Virus genome (UHGV): UHGV-0106859
Length of the DNA stretch: 17,837 nt
Source of the DNA: a virus
Reading direction: 5' to 3' (one strand)
This document shows, one piece after another, positions 122 through 17,549 of the stretch (its first letter is position 1; every line of letters starts with the position of its first letter). The translations under genes and the position numbers were made by a program. Under the pieces are notes generated by a model. The model had not been told where the DNA came from and did no database searches. It was given only the letters and a program-made list of their open reading frames with translations.

Positions 122-1045
122 TCAGTAGTTATGTACTGAAGGAGGCAATTCTTTATTCTTAAGTCTCATCCATGCGGAAAGATTCGTTGGTCCGTCTGGC
201 TCATTAATATCAACATCTCGTGTGTGGTTTATTAAAACGTCTCTCGCCATTCCGATAACATACGAGAATTCATGACCATAGTCGTAGCATCTGCCTGAAT
301 AGTTCGATTGAATTTGTTTTAGCGCCGGATACAGTTCGCGGAATAATGCCTGTGAGCGGTTGGCATAATCCCATAACCATACAAGGCTGTTTGCTTCTTT
401 TGCAGAAAGCTCGTTGGTTTTCTTCTCTTGTTTGCCGATGAACTCACCTTCAAGTGGAACTCGAGCTGCAAGTGATAGTGCTTCGGTAAACTGCTCCTCA
501 CTGATTTCTTTGTACGAACATCCAAAATGGGATTTCAGTGACGACCACATGGTGATCATCGCCTTAGCCTGTTTTTCCTTTGGCAGAGACTGACCGCGAC
601 TCATGACGAGTTGTTTAATGGCTTCCTGCTGTTCAGTGGTGATTTTACCCGGCAACGCCTTTTTAGCTTTGCGTGGGTTAACTACATGACCTTTAGTCCA
701 GTACTCGTATAGCACATCGTCACACTCTTCTTGATACTGGATTACATTGTCGCGGATTTCAGGGCGGACTTTGTTAGGGCTGATGGTTTGCAACCAGCCA
801 TTCAGTTTACGTAAAGCAAGGCAAATCATGTTCTGCACACCGCCAACTGAAGGTATTGCGATTTCCACAATACCTTTAGCAAATCTTTGTTTTAACTTTG
901 TAAACTGTGAAGCCCAATCCATACCCATTCCCTCAACGATAGGTTTCATTGGGGTGTACGGCTCACCGTTGTGATTAACAACATAAAGCTCTGCGCCGTG
1001 GAATGGTACATTGATAGTAGATACTGCTGTTGCTATACTTTTCAT
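122..1045 (-). CDS. ant: Antirepressor (Ant-like; N-terminal AntA/AntB-type domain)
   Basis: 307-aa ORF; N-terminal region (VPFHGAELYVVNHNGEPYTPMKPIVEGMGMDW...) resembles the phage antirepressor N-terminal domain; sits in the immI-like cluster downstream of an Arc-like gene and opposite mnt; ATG start with GGA about 8-11 nt upstream. Confidence 0.75.
   Translation of the reverse strand: MKSIATAVSTINVPFHGAELYVVNHNGEPYTPMKPIVEGMGMDWASQFTKLKQRFAKGIVEIAIPSVGGVQNMICLALRKLNGWLQTISPNKVRPEIRDNVIQYQEECDDVLYEYWTKGHVVNPRKAKKALPGKITTEQQEAIKQLVMSRGQSLPKEKQAKAMITMWSSLKSHFGCSYKEISEEQFTEALSLAARVPLEGEFIGKQEKKTNELSAKEANSLVWLWDYANRSQALFRELYPALKQIQSNYSGRCYDYGHEFSYVIGMARDVLINHTRDVDINEPDGPTNLSAWMRLKNKELPPSVHNY
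1011..1039 (+). promoter_or_regulatory. Near-consensus sigma70 promoter inside the 5' end of ant, reading antisense (Psar-like)
   Basis: TTGATA (1011-1016), 17-bp spacer, TATACT (1034-1039) on the plus strand; predicted start near 1046, immediately past the ant start codon and antisense to the ant ribosome-binding region. Confidence 0.45.
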
Positions 1046-1120: not shown

Positions 1121-1312
1121 TCTATCAGTTATATCTTTCCCTTCATATACTTCACCTATATTGCTAATGCTGGCAGAACATCCAAGATGCTTGTATCTTA
1201 TGATGTCCAACACGCAGTCACTACACAGCATCCGACCTGTTTCTTTAGAGTAAATGTATGTTTGATCAGCGTCTGATTCGCTAATGCCGCAGAAACAACA
1301 TTCTTTACTCAT
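1109..1312 (-). CDS. Small cysteine-rich protein (67 aa; CCxC near the N-terminus and CxxC at 30-33; possible zinc ribbon), hypothetical
   Basis: ORF start ATG overlaps the stop of the upstream Arc-like gene (ATGA overlap at 1309-1312), suggesting translational coupling; purine-rich SD (AGAGAGGGG) upstream; occupies the slot directly upstream of ant. Confidence 0.5.
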   Translation of the reverse strand: MSKECCFCGISESDADQTYIYSKETGRMLCSDCVLDIIRYKHLGCSASISNIGEVYEGKDITDRAES

Positions 1313-1449
1313 ACCGTTATCCCCTCTCTCTTCAGGCTGTCCATCACCCGTTTAATTACTTCTGCACTAAATGAGCGACACTCTTCCTTTGCTTTCTCTT
1401 CAAGGATTTTTTCTAACTTCTCTGGCATACGCAGTGTTTTTACCTTCAT
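1309..1449 (-). CDS. Arc-like ribbon-helix-helix repressor (46 aa), below the 60-aa cutoff of the supplied ORF track
   Basis: Hand-translated: MKVKTLRMPEKLEKILEEKAKEECRSFSAEVIKRVMDSLKREGITV; the C-terminal helix (RSFSAEVIKRVMDSLKREG) resembles P22 Arc (RSVNSEIYQRVMESFKKEG as recalled); GGAGG SD 6 nt upstream of the ATG at 1449; first gene of the minus-strand immI operon. Confidence 0.65.
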   Translation of the reverse strand: MKVKTLRMPEKLEKILEEKAKEECRSFSAEVIKRVMDSLKREGITV

Positions 1450-1548: not shown

Positions 1549-1554
1549 GTGCCG

Positions 1555-1812
1555 ATGTCTGATCGTAAGTACAAAAACCCTCAAGTGAATCTGAGGCTTC
1601 CTGTAGAGATAAAGGAACGTCTTATTGAACTGGCTGAGGCTAATTCTCGTTCATTAAATGCTGAGATGGTCGCGGCACTTGAAGCATGGACCGAAAAAAA
1701 TAAACACATTCAAGCACTAGACCTTGCAACTATAGCATCACGATTGATAGATCTTGAACATGATGTTGAGAAGTTGAAATGCATGTATAGCAACAATAAA
1801 GACGAAAGTTAG
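1555..1812 (+). CDS. Mnt-like ribbon-helix-helix DNA-binding protein (second RHH repressor, about 85 aa) with C-terminal coiled-coil extension
   Basis: N-terminus (QVNLRLPVEIKERLIELAEANSRSLNAEMVAAL) has the RHH beta-strand/helix pattern; track ORF begins at GTG 1549, but ATG at 1555 has an AGGA SD 7 nt upstream; immediately upstream of and co-directional with mnt. Confidence 0.65.
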   Translation: MSDRKYKNPQVNLRLPVEIKERLIELAEANSRSLNAEMVAALEAWTEKNKHIQALDLATIASRLIDLEHDVEKLKCMYSNNKDES

Positions 1813-1835: not shown

Positions 1836-2087
1836 ATGGCTAGAGACGATCCGCACTTTAACTTCCGTATGCCTATGGAAGTAAGGGAGAAATTAAAATT
1901 CAGGGCGGAGGCGAATGGGAGATCAATGAACTCCGAGTTGTTACAAATCGTCCAAGATGCTCTATCAAAACCATCGCCTGTGACTGGATATCGCGACGAT
2001 GCAGAACGACTCGCTGATGAGCAGTCAGAGCTTGTTAAGAAGATGGTGTTTGATACGCTGAAGGATTTGTACAAAAAACCCACCTGA
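1836..2087 (+). CDS. mnt: Mnt repressor (ribbon-helix-helix; P22 Mnt-type)
   Basis: 83-aa product MARDDPHFNFRMPMEVREKLKFRAEANGRSMNSELLQIVQDALSKP... is near-identical to P22 Mnt as I recall it; GGAG SD 7 nt upstream; orientation opposite to arc/ant as in P22 immI. Confidence 0.85.
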   Translation: MARDDPHFNFRMPMEVREKLKFRAEANGRSMNSELLQIVQDALSKPSPVTGYRDDAERLADEQSELVKKMVFDTLKDLYKKPT

Positions 2088-2098
2088 CGGTGGGTTAC
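2071..2098. terminator. Bidirectional hairpin terminator between convergent mnt and the accessory 355-aa gene
   Basis: CCCACC-tgac-GGTGGG (2079-2094) with an A-run upstream (T-run on the minus strand); the mnt stop codon lies in the loop; the minus-strand gene stop is at 2101. Confidence 0.5.
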
Positions 2099-2100
2099 TG

Positions 2101-3108
2101 TTACTTGTCTGAATCATCCAGTTCGTCTGTTTTCACATCCTCAAACCTTGGATGCAGGCGATTCATTTTTGCAATAAAATCTGAATAGTCGTTAGATAGC
2201 TTCATAATCGTAACGGTTGATGACAGATGCTCTCTTAATTTTTGATATCCAATATTTGGCGTCAGCCCCTGAAACAACTTTGTACCTTTTGAAGCCTTTA
2301 CGTTCTGCTTTTTAAGCTCCTCAAGGATGTTTGGTGCCAATCGCTTGTAGACGATATCATTTGTCAAAACGCCAAAATACTGAGGGCGGAAGCGGGGATT
2401 TTCCGGCGGGTATTCTAAGCCCCTTAACCTGAAAAGCTCTTCATAATAATCAGCCGGAAATGTTGTAATATAAGGTTGAATTTCCTTTGCGACAAAGGCC
2501 TCGAGTATTTTGGCGAGCGCATCTTTTTCTCTATCTCGCTGGTACCCCGTCGCTTCATCAACAAGCGCTATTATTCCGACTTTAGCTAATGAGCGCACCA
2601 GAATTTCAGCTTTCTTGGCTGTCTCTAACTGGTTTGGCCTGGTGATAGCGCCTGCCTCTCTTGCCTTTAAATAAACATCGCAAACAAGAGGTATTATGGA
2701 TGCGTCATAACCTTCTTGGACGGAGCCAGTAATCGTCTTGTATTTAACCTTATTGATCACATCCATAACATCTTGATTTATATATTTTTTAAGGTTTGCA
2801 GCATCCATAAAAGCGGGCATATTGATCGCCCCCTCTTCTTGAGGTGCTCTACCCCCTCTTTGTGGTCGGCCAAATGCTTTAAAAACAGAAGCTTGTGATA
2901 TGATACGCCGTCCATTTTCGAGAACCGCGACATCTAATTCCGCATCACCGATCTTTAACTTTCCCTCATTCGCAGATACGGGCAATAAAGCTTTTTCTTT
3001 TTTTGCGGCAACAGCCTTTCTTGAGGATTCTTTTCTTTGCTCTGCTGTCATTTTTGCCGCGCGTGCCTTACCGCCTTTGGCCTTCCCACTAACATCATCA
3101 TTTTTCAT
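2101..3108 (-). CDS. Accessory (moron) protein of unknown function, about 335 aa, with a lysine/arginine-rich N-terminal tail; possibly a P63C-type phage domain (unverified)
   Basis: Long minus-strand ORF (track 2101-3168, but that start is a TTG inside an operator-like palindrome; first plausible ATGs at 3114/3108 with weak SD). AT-richer than the flanking structural genes. Lies between gene 16 and mnt, the slot where P22 carries sieA. Confidence 0.65.
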   Translation of the reverse strand: MKNDDVSGKAKGGKARAAKMTAEQRKESSRKAVAAKKEKALLPVSANEGKLKIGDAELDVAVLENGRRIISQASVFKAFGRPQRGGRAPQEEGAINMPAFMDAANLKKYINQDVMDVINKVKYKTITGSVQEGYDASIIPLVCDVYLKAREAGAITRPNQLETAKKAEILVRSLAKVGIIALVDEATGYQRDREKDALAKILEAFVAKEIQPYITTFPADYYEELFRLRGLEYPPENPRFRPQYFGVLTNDIVYKRLAPNILEELKKQNVKASKGTKLFQGLTPNIGYQKLREHLSSTVTIMKLSNDYSDFIAKMNRLHPRFEDVKTDELDDSDK

Positions 3109-3148
3109 GAGCATATCTCGTGTTGTGATTGATAAGTCAATCATACAC

Positions 3149-3186
3149 ATGCACGTTGTAACGTGCAATATTTAAATATGCACGTA
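3149..3186. promoter_or_regulatory. Operator-like palindrome cluster upstream of the accessory gene
   Basis: Perfect 18-bp palindrome TGCACGTT-GT-AACGTGCA (3150-3167), perfect 12-bp palindrome ATATTTAAATAT (3168-3179), and a third TGCACGT half-site (3179-3185); possible minus-strand -35 TTGCAA at 3194-3189. Confidence 0.5.
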
Positions 3187-3267
3187 AATTGCAAATCAGA
3201 TAATGAGGAGACTTTCTCCCCCTTGCACTGACATCATGGTATTCTGCTCAAAACTAAGGAGGTTGGT

Positions 3268-3597
3268 GTGTTAGAAATAGTCGTACTCGCTCTTGGGATA
3301 TCCTGTTGCGTACTATATGCAGGGTTAGCTGCCCTCAAGAAACAGGTTAAGGAATTAGATCGCTCACATGAAATTGATACAAAAATTGCGCGATTAACAG
3401 AAGAGAATAAACACTTAAAAAATTCCATAAGGGCACTAACTGATGACAACTACAAACTGTCCCATGCATTGGCTAAGTGGGAAATAGTAAGTTATGAAAG
3501 AATGACCGACATGATTTTTTCGTCTTATATGGCTACAAAATCTCCTGAAACATCAGGAAAAGCAATAATTGCAGCCATTGAAAAGAGAATTAAATAG
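3268..3597 (+). CDS. Small membrane-anchored coiled-coil protein (109 aa), hypothetical; candidate superinfection-exclusion or accessory factor
   Basis: GTG start with a strong SD TAAGGAGG 5 nt upstream (3255-3262); N-terminal hydrophobic segment LEIVVLALGISCCVLYAGLAAL, then a charged helical region; AT-rich; convergent with gene 16 and divergent from the 355-aa gene. Confidence 0.7.
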   Translation: MLEIVVLALGISCCVLYAGLAALKKQVKELDRSHEIDTKIARLTEENKHLKNSIRALTDDNYKLSHALAKWEIVSYERMTDMIFSSYMATKSPETSGKAIIAAIEKRIK

Positions 3598-3616: not shown

Positions 3617-5458
3617 CTACTGCCTGGTAGCTTCGTTAGTTAGGAGAGGGCGAACGGCGTTAGCAGCCTGATTTAACGCTCGCTCATATGCCGGAGTTCC
3701 AGGCTTGACGTTTGCAAGGCGGAGAAGCATGTTTCTTGCTGCTTTAGACTCATACAAACGCATCATTGCACCAAAGCCAGCCTCAAGCCCCATTGATACG
3801 CCAAGAGTCGCAGTTGCGCCAATCGTCCTTATCCGGTTGGCTTGCGATTGCCCCGTCTGAGTTACTACATTTGCGGTGTCTGACCTTGCTGTTTGCTGTA
3901 GAACTTCATGAAGAGAATCAAGCTCTTTCATGTGCTTTCCAGAAAAAATAGTGTTGTAAATTTCACCGCCTGACTGAGATTTCAGCTTATTAACTTCAGT
4001 GATGAACTTGGCTGGAGAGTCACCGGCCTTTTCCGCTATTTTGCTGACATAAGCTGCACGCATAGCATCTTTCCCTTTATTATCCAATGCGCTCCAGATT
4101 CGTTTCACGTCAGATGGTTTTCTGCTTAATACAACGGTATTTATAAGTTCAGGACTGGCTTCACTGCTTGCCTTGTTGAGCTTGTTAGCAATGTTTTTAT
4201 TAAGCACCTTATTATAAACGTTTGCATAATCGGAATTTGCTTTAAGGTATTTTGCTGCGTCTGATGCACCGAGGTTTTTTGCAACTGCGTTACGAAGATC
4301 TTTTGACATTGCATTCTCTACCATATTGGTAGCTGCTTTTGCCTGGTTTGGGAAGACCATAGCATCTCCCTGAACATTAGATCTAAATGCTGTTCTGTGC
4401 TGACGCAAGAGATCAAACGTAACATCCAAATCAGTTGCAGGGTTTGCTAATTCTTCACGTAGGTTACGCAAGGATGTAAGCAGGCTTTGATTGGCAGACG
4501 TCCCAAGCCGTTCCTGTCTTGCGATCGCTGTATTCAGAGCATTCATGGTATTTGTGGTATCAACTGCGGCATTACCCATTTTATTGGTGACGTCATTGAT
4601 AACAGCGCTAGCGGCATCCTTCCGCCCCCTTAACGTGGTGGTAAGAGATTTCACCACATCATCAGGGTTGTACTCACCAAAACGGTCAAAATAATTACTT
4701 ACCAGCTTACTACGCGTTGCATATTGCTCCGCTCGCTTTGAGCCTGTCCCGAGCAAAGCCCCCTCGGCATCCTGAGTTAGGCCGCGAGTGAAAGCATTTT
4801 TCGGCGGGATAACATCAGATGTCATTGGTGTCACGCCCATCGATTCTGATGTGGCAATTTTCTTCGCCACTTCTGGCGCAATATCACCTTTTATAGCCGT
4901 TATTCCACGCCCTATTCCCTTTGCTGCTGCGGAAAGAACCCCCTGAGCGGCAAGGTTAACTCCGGCATTTTTAGCTGCATTTTGTGCGAAATCGCCTTTC
5001 TGATTTGCGGCCTCTGCCAGTGATCCAATAGCCATGCTTCCTGCCGTTCCAACTCCTGGAACTAAATACCCGCCAATTGTTTCTCCAGCTTGCGCATAAG
5101 GGTCTGTTGGTCGATCGACTGGACGATAGACATCGTCCAAAACCTTGGGGCCACCAAGCCCCTGGCTGATTGCATTAATCAGACTTGCGCCGCCCTGCAA
5201 TACGTCAAATGGTATGTTTACCAGACCACGACCAGCCTGTTCCGCAATTTGCCCTGCACTTTGACCACCAGTGGGCCAATCGCCAGCTTGTTGCATCAAT
5301 GATGGTTCTTCCCGTGTTGGTGCATTATTGGCCTGATTAACTGTTTGTTGCTGAACAGCCTGACCAGCAAAATACTCATCAATGGCGGTGCCAATATCTT
5401 CGGTGCTCGTACCATCAGGAAAGGTAAATGTCTTACCGTTTGCAGTTACTTTCATCAT
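3617..5458 (-). CDS. Ejection (DNA transfer) protein gp16-like
   Basis: 613 aa (P22 gp16 is about 609 aa as recalled); last gene of the ejection-protein trio; ATGA overlap with the upstream gene at 5455-5458. Confidence 0.85.
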
Positions 5459-12458: not shown

Positions 12459-13369
12459 TATCGAATTCCTTTATTCAGTTGCGCCTTAAGCTTGCGGTAC
12501 GTCTCTACATCCCCTTTGTTTGCTGCCGCTTCCATCTGCTTTTCAATCGCAGAGATATTTGCAGCAACAGCGTGTCCCTGAATGGGTTCATCAGGTAACG
12601 GGGCTTCTGAAACAGGCTTTGCTCGAGGCTTGAGAGTTAAACGTTCTGACAGTCGAGTGAGTTCAATCAGCGCGGATTGCCCGTCCATCGCCAGCAACTG
12701 GCGTGTTTTCTCAGGATTAGCACCAAGGTGATACATGAGAGCAGCGGATTTCTCCGGGAAGAGGCGCATGATGTCGGCACCGACTGCTGGCGGCACCAGT
12801 TGCATGAATGCATCCTCTTTCTCCTGATAGTCAGGGATATTGAGCTTTTCCGCTGCGTCGTAGTGCTTACGGGCTGCCTCGACGTATTGCGCTGATTGCT
12901 GGGTGAACTCCTGAGTTTTGCGACCCTGCTCGGCGACAGCCTGGCTTCGTGCGTCCATAGCCTTGATCTGCCATTCACTGTTTGCCTGCTGGAAGGCAGC
13001 CAGTGCGCGGCTCTGGTCATAGTCGTACTTAGCCAGTGCATCTTCGGAAAGATAATCGTTAGGGTCTGGTTGTTTTGGTAACTCAGGGTTCACCCGCAGG
13101 TGCTCCGGCAACTCTCCACGCTTAACCGCTTCCATCTGCTGCTCAAGCTCACGCTGGCGTTTGCGTTCGATGCGGCGACGGGCAAATTCAGCATTAGTTG
13201 CCGGGTCTTGTTTTGGTTTCTCATCGTCTTTCAGGACAATCTCAAAGCCTTCTTCCTGACCTGCACTGTCGTTGGCATTATCGACAACTAAGCCATCAGC
13301 AGATGCCGCTGCATGATTGCCGGGCAGGGTTAATTCTTCAGAAGCCTGAATGTCGGTGGTTTGGTCCAT
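12458..13369 (-). CDS. Scaffolding protein, gp8-like
   Basis: 303 aa (P22 gp8 is 303 aa as recalled); highly charged helical composition; between portal and coat. Confidence 0.9.
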
Positions 13370-17048: not shown

Positions 17049-17514
17049 GGTTGAATAGCTCCTTGATACGAGAGCGTCGCTTATCGCGATCTCCCTTATC
17101 AGGTGTCACGTCTTCAACTTGCGACTGCTCTTTGAGGCCCAAATCACGGGCGATGATGTTAGCGTTGAGAAGGTCAGCGGCTGCGCCAGAGAATTTCTGG
17201 TCGTAGATGATGTCTTCCGCTCGTGATGTGACGTCAGAAAAACCTTCCATTGACCGGAAGGTTCCCCATGTTTGCCTGGTGATATCAAGGAAGGTACACA
17301 ATCCTGAAATAGTCATGGCTCGCATCTTAGGGACATTAGCCTTAATTATTTCTCCCTGATATGAAAATACCTTACCCTCCCATAGCGGGTTATCATCAGC
17401 CCACTCGAAGTATTCACAACAAGCTGCCCACAGCGCCTCAGGCGATTCGAATTTAGGATTTCGCCCATGACTACTGCGGGCCTCCCAAAATCGGTTGCCC
17501 TTTGGTGCTGCCAT
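17026..17514 (-). CDS. Terminase small subunit, gp3-like
   Basis: Product [38 protein letters not shown]... matches P22 gp3 as recalled (162 aa from the ATG at 17514; the track ORF begins two codons earlier). Confidence 0.9.
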
Positions 17515-17549
17515 ATTCATCTCACTTAATCGTTATTTCAGGTTGAGCA

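Follow-up and report, generated by a model that had tools for sequence, protein, structure and literature searches.

The window analysed here is the whole of a 17,837-nt stretch of viral DNA (UHGV virus genome UHGV-0106859; one strand, 5′ to 3′), which spans the late region and immI of a P22-like prophage from E. coli. Its minus strand carries DNA-transfer (ejection) genes (P22 16, 20, and a third ejection protein), virion genes, and the portal and terminase genes. The immI region, at the left, includes an antirepressor gene (122..1045), an arc-like gene (1309..1449), and two tandem plus-strand Mnt-like genes of the Arc ribbon-helix-helix family (1549..1812 and 1836..2087); P22 has one Mnt-like gene, as does the EC11 prophage. 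Between mnt and gene 16, the position of sieA in P22, lies a single-gene minus-strand cassette (2054..3257), consisting of a putative operator/promoter region, a gene for a P63C-family protein, and a terminator. In phage biology, this position in immI is associated with superinfection-exclusion genes.

The limits of the cassette are set by its occurrence elsewhere. Exactly this span is found, at 98.9–99% identity, in 933W, BP-4795, and other Stx phages, where it is flanked, within the nin region, by a DNA methylase gene and roi; locus L013 provides a third context. The P22-like relatives ST160, P22, and SEN22 lack it at this position. The Stx-phage identity, the content of the span (a gene, a terminator, and 150 bp upstream of the gene, palindromes included), and its presence in full in 49 of 5,426 complete E. 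coli genomes together identify 2054–3257 as a portable promoter-gene-terminator cassette.

The terminator is a bidirectional intrinsic-terminator-like hairpin (AACCCACC-GTCA-GGTGGGTT, 2077..2096, both strands), followed by TTTTGT on the minus strand. It was called on both strands in a terminator scan (as 2096..2077, 4 nt after the P63C stop codon), and ends both the P63C gene and the convergent Mnt-like gene; only two other inverted repeats in the window have 8-bp arms. At the right end of the cassette, and moving with it, is a plus-strand remnant (3234..3257) resembling the 5′ leader of P22 sieA. The window is 92–97% identical to the P22 sieA leader and start over 3234–3270, while the homology to 933W ends at 3257. 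The plus-strand ORF that follows at the sieA position (3268–3597; 109 aa; phrog_8100, unknown function) has only this leader and the first codons in common with sieA. Its predicted product has a hydrophobic N-terminus and then a coiled-coil-like region (weak DivIC match), and the cassette end replaces P22 PsieA ahead of it.

Both cassette ends can be read as immI “scars”: on the left (2054–2097) the last 34 nt of a Mnt-like gene together with the shared terminator, and on the right (3234–3257) the sieA-leader-like piece. A further 155 E. coli genomes match 2054–2097 alone, inside an Arc-family gene. These matches and the scars suggest a P22-like phage as the source from which the Stx phages acquired their copies.

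The P63C gene (2101..3108, minus strand; 335 aa plus stop, start ATG 3108..3106) encodes a clear member of its family, matching the Pfam profile PF10546 (P63C) at 84.2 bits against a cut-off of 26.1 (E = 1e-23), and phrog_2384 at E = 3.6e-146 over profile positions 2–337 of 338. All 30 aligned homologues (30/30) match PF10546 as well. The Pfam scan gave P63C alone in these 30, with no second domain, and detected no HTH, ribbon-helix-helix, or MerR domain in them or in the window protein. The family is large (at least 7,670 clusters at E ≤ 1e-5). Its PHROG carries the label “unknown function,” and a literature search on the P63C domain, phage P63C proteins, and L0095 found nothing on function or regulation. 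No defence model in PADLOC-DB 2.0 was matched significantly (best match E = 0.0074, with 0 passing stretches). Neither result lends direct support to the toxic or defence function proposed in the preliminary description.

Three start codons have been assigned to this gene or its homologues. The ORF list used for the preliminary description begins at TTG 3168 (355 aa); that description observed that this codon falls inside a palindrome and considered a downstream start more probable, a correction borne out here by the PHROG profile and the 30-sequence alignment. The phrog_2384 alignment opens at profile position 2, corresponding to residue 17 of a 349-aa version, and the family alignment begins MKNDD, corresponding to ATG 3108. 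In RefSeq/PGAP, the homologues in 933W and E. coli are annotated with 349 aa, from an ATG abutting the palindrome (window 3150); the 335-aa product begins 14 codons downstream of this (window 3106–3168; NC_000924.1 17532–17574). ATG 3150 and TTG 3168 both lie within or at the edge of the palindrome, and ATG 3108 has a Shine-Dalgarno-like GAG (3119..3117) 7 nt upstream. The true start is therefore probably ATG 3108, which would correct both the RefSeq length of 349 aa and the 355 aa of the ORF list, each too long, to 335 aa. The GAG is part of a conserved 5′-leader element recognized in an upstream alignment (CACAACACGAG, 3117..3127, minus strand), which is kept in nine enteric-clade upstream regions, with most columns invariant.

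Upstream of this start is a dense cluster of short repeats. An inverted repeat, TGCACGTT-GT-AACGTGCA, occupies 3150–3167 (arms 3150–3157 and 3160–3167, 8 bp, 100% complementary), and is followed by a perfect 12-bp palindrome, ATATTTAAATAT, at 3168–3179. A repeat search also pairs the TGCACGT copies at 3179–3185 and 3161–3167 as a 7-bp inverted repeat with an 11-nt spacer. The three elements reported earlier upstream of the minus-strand gene were thus all confirmed at their stated positions. To call the first of them a perfect 18-bp palindrome slightly overstates it: the 8-bp arms are perfect, but the central GT is not self-complementary.

A different description of the cluster as a whole is preferred here. 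Read on the gene (minus) strand, its 36 bp are ACGTGCA-N11-TGCACGT-N4-ACGTGCA, three copies of one 7-bp half-site in alternating orientation. Half-site 1 (ACGTGCA, 3179..3185) would lie at about −52 to −46 from the putative transcription start discussed below, half-site 2 (TGCACGT, 3161..3167) at about −34 to −28, and half-site 3 (ACGTGCA, 3150..3156) at about −23 to −17; half-sites 2 and 3 form the palindrome TGCACGT-N4-ACGTGCA. Rather than one palindrome plus extras, as first described, the layout is one of three alternating half-sites with the 18- and 11-nt spacing typical of the family. The 12-bp A/T palindrome, initially listed as an element of its own, is simply the A/T-rich stretch that separates half-sites 1 and 2. 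Relatives have an A/T-rich spacer of 10–11 nt here but do not conserve the palindromic sequence, and a separate operator at this point was rejected for that reason. The spacer could be an UP-element or a bendable segment.

A second inverted repeat, TGATTGA-CTTA-TCAATCA (3126..3143, minus strand; found by the repeat search), overlaps the putative −10 and matches the main palindrome in its 7+4+7 geometry. It is specific to the cassette; relatives have GCTCGT...CACGAG instead, including a degenerate fourth half-site, TGCTCGT. Elsewhere in the window, the gene 16 homologue contains a perfect inverted repeat with 8-bp arms (TGGACGAT-AGAC-ATCGTCCA, 5120–5139), which is consistent with chance (three such repeats observed, 1.7 expected).

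Judged within the window alone, the cluster is only weakly unusual. TGCACGT occurs 4 times against 2.9 expected; 3 inverted repeats have arms of 8 bp or longer and spacers of up to 4 nt, against 1.7 ± 1.6 in shuffled sequence; and one 7-mer present three times within 40 nt is seen in 11% of dinucleotide shuffles. Since these statistics are weak, the case rests on comparison with related sequences, which indicates that the cluster is not a product of chance.

For this comparison, about 170 homologous loci were collected from viral and genome collections, with start codons placed by tblastn, and reduced to 140 non-redundant loci (43–100% identity) from hosts in at least five phyla; sources included Proteobacteria, Actinobacteria, Chloroflexi, Acidobacteria, and Geobacteraceae. 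In almost all of these 140 loci, a 7–9-nt half-site recurs several times within the 140 nt preceding the start, and such arrays were found in Proteobacteria, Actinobacteria, and Chloroflexi. A single 7-mer is present at least three times in this interval in 57/140 loci, as against 3/140 for shuffled and 6/140 for coding sequence. The commonest half-site is TGCAAGC(AT): GCAAGCA is present upstream in 82/140 loci, but in 800 nt of coding sequence in just 16/140. Half-site types by clade include TGCAAGC, TGCACGT, TGCACGC, TGTACGCA, TTAGCA, and GATAGAT.

The geometry is likewise shared. Orientations alternate, with start-to-start distances peaking at 17–18 nt (tail-to-tail) and 11–12 nt (head-to-head); each locus typically has three or four sites, and sites lie 10–90 nt ahead of the start codon. 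The 18/11 arrangement of the window is the commonest layout in 68 homologous loci, and no spacing is more frequent in the family than the 18 nt that separate the starts of half-sites 1 and 2. Relatives with from 87% down to about 47–52% protein identity keep a core, TTGCACGT-N4/5-ACGTGCA, in flanks that cannot be aligned. They usually add an upstream ACGTGCA beyond the spacer (an equivalent of half-site 1 is seen in L027 and L031, and a degenerate one in L112, L116, and L175). A search in the other direction found the exact palindrome in 103 stretches of viral contigs; in 22 of the 80 that were fetched, a P63C-family gene starts 30–70 nt downstream. The pattern is that expected of an operator: repeated and inverted sites over the putative core promoter are kept while their flanks diverge.

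The promoter itself is a matter of sequence reading. A putative −35, TTGCAC (3163..3168, minus strand; 3/6 consensus, with TTG present), is embedded in half-site 2, and a putative −10, TATGAT (3140..3145, minus strand; 5/6 consensus), follows after 17 nt (TTGCAC 3168..3163, TATGAT 3145..3140). Together these may form a sigma-70-type promoter, TTGCAC-N17-TATGAT, with transcription starting near 3133, corresponding to about 17549 in NC_000924.1, and a 25-nt leader to ATG 3108. TTGCA is invariant across the enteric clade, as are the TTGCA.G columns of the upstream alignment. A promoter scan called nothing at this site, and in most clade members the best −10 (TATAAT) is 19 nt from TTGCAC. An alternative, TTGCAA(3195..3190)-N16-AATATT, was rejected, as most cassette copies have TCGCAA here. 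Among natural variants, L017 (1459–1465) has TATAAT in place of TATGAT, and L013 has two changes in or beside half-site 2. The proposal that the cluster overlaps the likely promoter of the minus-strand gene is supported by the comparison, as is the reading of the cluster as a cis-regulatory operator region.

What would bind such an array? The cassette moves as a unit, so any regulator must travel with it, and the cassette encodes one protein. A host-specific factor is excluded by the distribution of the family loci over several phyla. Only the P63C-family gene accompanies the array throughout. A divergently transcribed gene was considered as a general binder and rejected, being transposase-HTH-like and present at only 14/140 loci. 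Its product (MNKLP..., with a transposase-like HTH N-terminus) is encoded beside many alphaproteobacterial family members (L039, L052, L079, L085, L093, L100, L103, L104, and others), with the array in the shared intergenic region.

The half-site also varies with the protein. Across the alignment, mutual information peaks at residue 28, which lies in a predicted helix (22–40): I, V, L, or M here goes with GCAAG sites (82:0), and S, A, T, or G with GCACG sites (0:16), for a Fisher p of 1e-18 without correction for phylogeny. On trees inferred from whichever segment of the protein, operator type requires 8–12 parsimony steps. Natural domain shuffles separate the parts: L140, L142, and L143 combine a beta region of the window type with a helix of the I/V28 type, and have AAGC-type sites, while L175, L176, and L033 are the converse shuffle. 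In these shuffles operator type follows the N-terminal helix and not the beta region. Because residue 28 is encoded about 130 nt from the operator, physical linkage could feed the association, and co-transfer in recombination could contribute to it. Taken together this is good evidence, though indirect, that the protein recognizes its own upstream array via its N-terminal part.

The N-terminal motif (GGKARAxxLTPERRSEIARKAAxARW) also occurs in stand-alone proteins of 38–70 aa (P0121–P0221; loci L179–L182), labelled YciG or histone H1 by some pipelines. GCAAGC or GCACG arrays were absent near these proteins in all four contexts checked (4/4), which may count against binding of P63C proteins to their own arrays. 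L180 has a different repeat upstream, a 13-nt direct one.

The cluster is, on balance, probably the operator array of an autonomous mobile one-gene cassette whose protein represses its own promoter. The P63C-family protein would most likely bind the upstream half-sites as a dimer or higher oligomer, probably through its N-terminus, where a basic helical hairpin (residues 9–40) is predicted to precede an alpha/beta domain. The array would span about −52 to −17 of the TTGCAC-N17-TATGAT promoter. Since its three half-sites cover the −35 and the spacer, binding should block RNA polymerase by occlusion, and negative autoregulation is the most economical model; it would hold expression low, and independent of context, in whichever phage hosts the cassette. 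Counted against this model are the failure of the scan to call the promoter, the 3/6 match of TTGCAC, and the 19-nt spacing in most relatives.

One alternative, rather unlikely, is that the array is a self-recognition target, a decoy or immunity element by which the protein would tell its own phage from others, with control of transcription secondary. The precedent would be BstA, a prophage defence protein with a putative N-terminal DNA-binding domain, whose immunity determinant aba is homologue-specific and comprises 63 bp, 29 bp upstream of bstA plus its first 34 bp (PMC8585504). By analogy, each system would consist of an accessory protein encoded by a prophage and a short DNA element, matched to that particular homologue, at the 5′ end of the protein's locus. 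Here the half-site changes in step with the protein from one homologue to the next, and the cassette fills the P22 sieA/immI position. However, aba enters the coding sequence, while the sites here are wholly upstream, in promoter positions; P63C proteins have no known defence activity or phenotype, and nothing significant came from PADLOC. Across the family, moreover, the sites keep a fixed distance from the start codon and overlie promoter-like hexamers, which makes a plain operator the simpler explanation.

Control by a regulator acting in trans, either a phage repressor of the CI, Cro, Mnt, or Arc type or a host transcription factor, appears improbable. Two observations favor it: Arc-like and Mnt-like repressor genes lie about 1 kb away in the window, and in about 11 viral contigs of one unrelated phage lineage a divergent pair of XRE-type HTH genes flanks the palindrome TGCACGTTATAACGTGCA (L229:6357–6524; also L183, L195, L202, L210, L214, L221, L244, L248, L250, and L256). 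The XRE-type pair encodes a 115-aa CI-like and an 80-aa Cro-like protein, with the related sites GCGCGTAAATACG and CGCGTATTTACGC alongside, and the site looks like an immunity-region operator that uses the same half-site. The identical palindrome is a point against binding of the array by the cassette's own protein. XRE-type repressors were nevertheless rejected as the binder: the window, 933W, and 41 kb surrounding the EC11 prophage copy all lack homologues of them, and the shared palindrome is treated here as a coincidence, with possible cross-talk.

Repressors of the phage itself fare no better. A search for the motif elsewhere in a complete phage genome, suggested at the outset, was run on 933W (61.7 kb): TGCACGT occurs four times, three of them in the cluster (17497–17532) and the other as a single half-site at 55788, and the palindrome is unique to the region upstream of the P63C gene. 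The motif is in no other regulatory position in 933W, being absent from the annotated CI/Cro operators (oR1-3, 12775–12845), and no arc/mnt pair accompanies the identical cluster there. In the window, the arc-mnt control region (1450–1548) likewise lacks TGCACGT. Nor was a conserved neighboring partner or regulator gene found across the family loci, and, since half-sites differ by clade and the arrays extend over several phyla, one regulator alone, whether of host or phage, would not suffice. The preliminary description had left expression as autoregulated or repressor-controlled; autoregulation is the better-supported reading, and control by phage repressors seems unlikely.

There is also a small possibility of MerR-style control, an activation or derepression through DNA distortion, with the protein bound to the palindrome within an over-long −35/−10 spacer and turning the promoter on upon a signal. 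This is suggested by the 19 nt between TTGCAC and TATAAT in most enteric-clade relatives, where the palindrome fills the −35 and the spacer. It is made quite improbable by the optimal 17 nt in the window, by the lack of any MerR-like domain among those found, and by the extra half-sites upstream and downstream of the core promoter, which fit occlusion better.

An RNA-level element (a hairpin acting as a terminator or leader structure) or a chance inverted repeat is very improbable: the weak statistics within the window and an RNA fold z of −2.95 over 3215..3100 are all that point this way, while chance is excluded by the deep conservation, and an RNA structure is countered by a terminator scan silent at 3150–3185, the lack of an Rfam match, the odd numbers of sites, their direct as well as inverted copies, spacers of 0–13 nt, the location of some upstream of the −35, and the use of one sequence per locus without pairwise covariation.

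Negative autoregulation by the P63C protein would place the cassette among familiar phage elements. Morons are autonomous promoter-gene-terminator units in lambdoid phages, such as lambda bor and lom and the morons of HK97, and an autoregulatory operator on a moron cassette is a well-known kind of element. Like a moron, the cassette contains one accessory gene, preceded by a control region of its own and followed directly by an intrinsic terminator. It likewise lies between conserved phage genes, is absent from close relatives, and is nearly identical in unrelated backbones. It differs in carrying a three-site operator array conserved across its gene family, and an array this elaborate and this widely conserved implies built-in feedback control.

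The array also resembles OR1-3, bound by CI and Cro, and the Mnt/Arc operators of P22 immI, in that short inverted-repeat arrays lie over the −35 and −10 and the predicted mechanism is again promoter occlusion with autoregulation. The sequence is unrelated to these, however, and the motif is absent from the arc-mnt region of the window and from 933W OR. Single 7-bp half-sites alternate here at 18/11 nt, in contrast to the three complete operators there, and the predicted binder has no HTH or ribbon-helix-helix domain detectable by Pfam.

As far as could be found, neither the upstream array nor its covariation with residue 28 has been described. They add a family-wide cis signature and a predicted recognition residue to a widespread, uncharacterized family of phage proteins, and the cassette documents a portable, apparently self-regulating unit that would have passed from the P22-like immI region to Stx phages. 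A broader reading, tentative and on present evidence unlikely, is that P63C proteins are a large unrecognized class of sequence-specific DNA-binding proteins, each with its own cognate array and an N-terminal recognition code, and that the array is an aba-like self-marker. If this were true, the basic helix GGxARA...R.E[I/S]A..A would read the half-site, with I/V at position 28 specifying TGCA-A-G and S/A specifying TGCA-C-G, and the array would be more than an operator, serving as a self-marker for prophage exclusion or defence.

The operator model itself predicts a DNA target, its geometry (three or four alternating half-sites at 18/11 nt), and a specificity residue (S28 vs. I28). These predictions would give a first functional handle on a protein family widespread in phages and prophages, the Shiga-toxin phage 933W among them.
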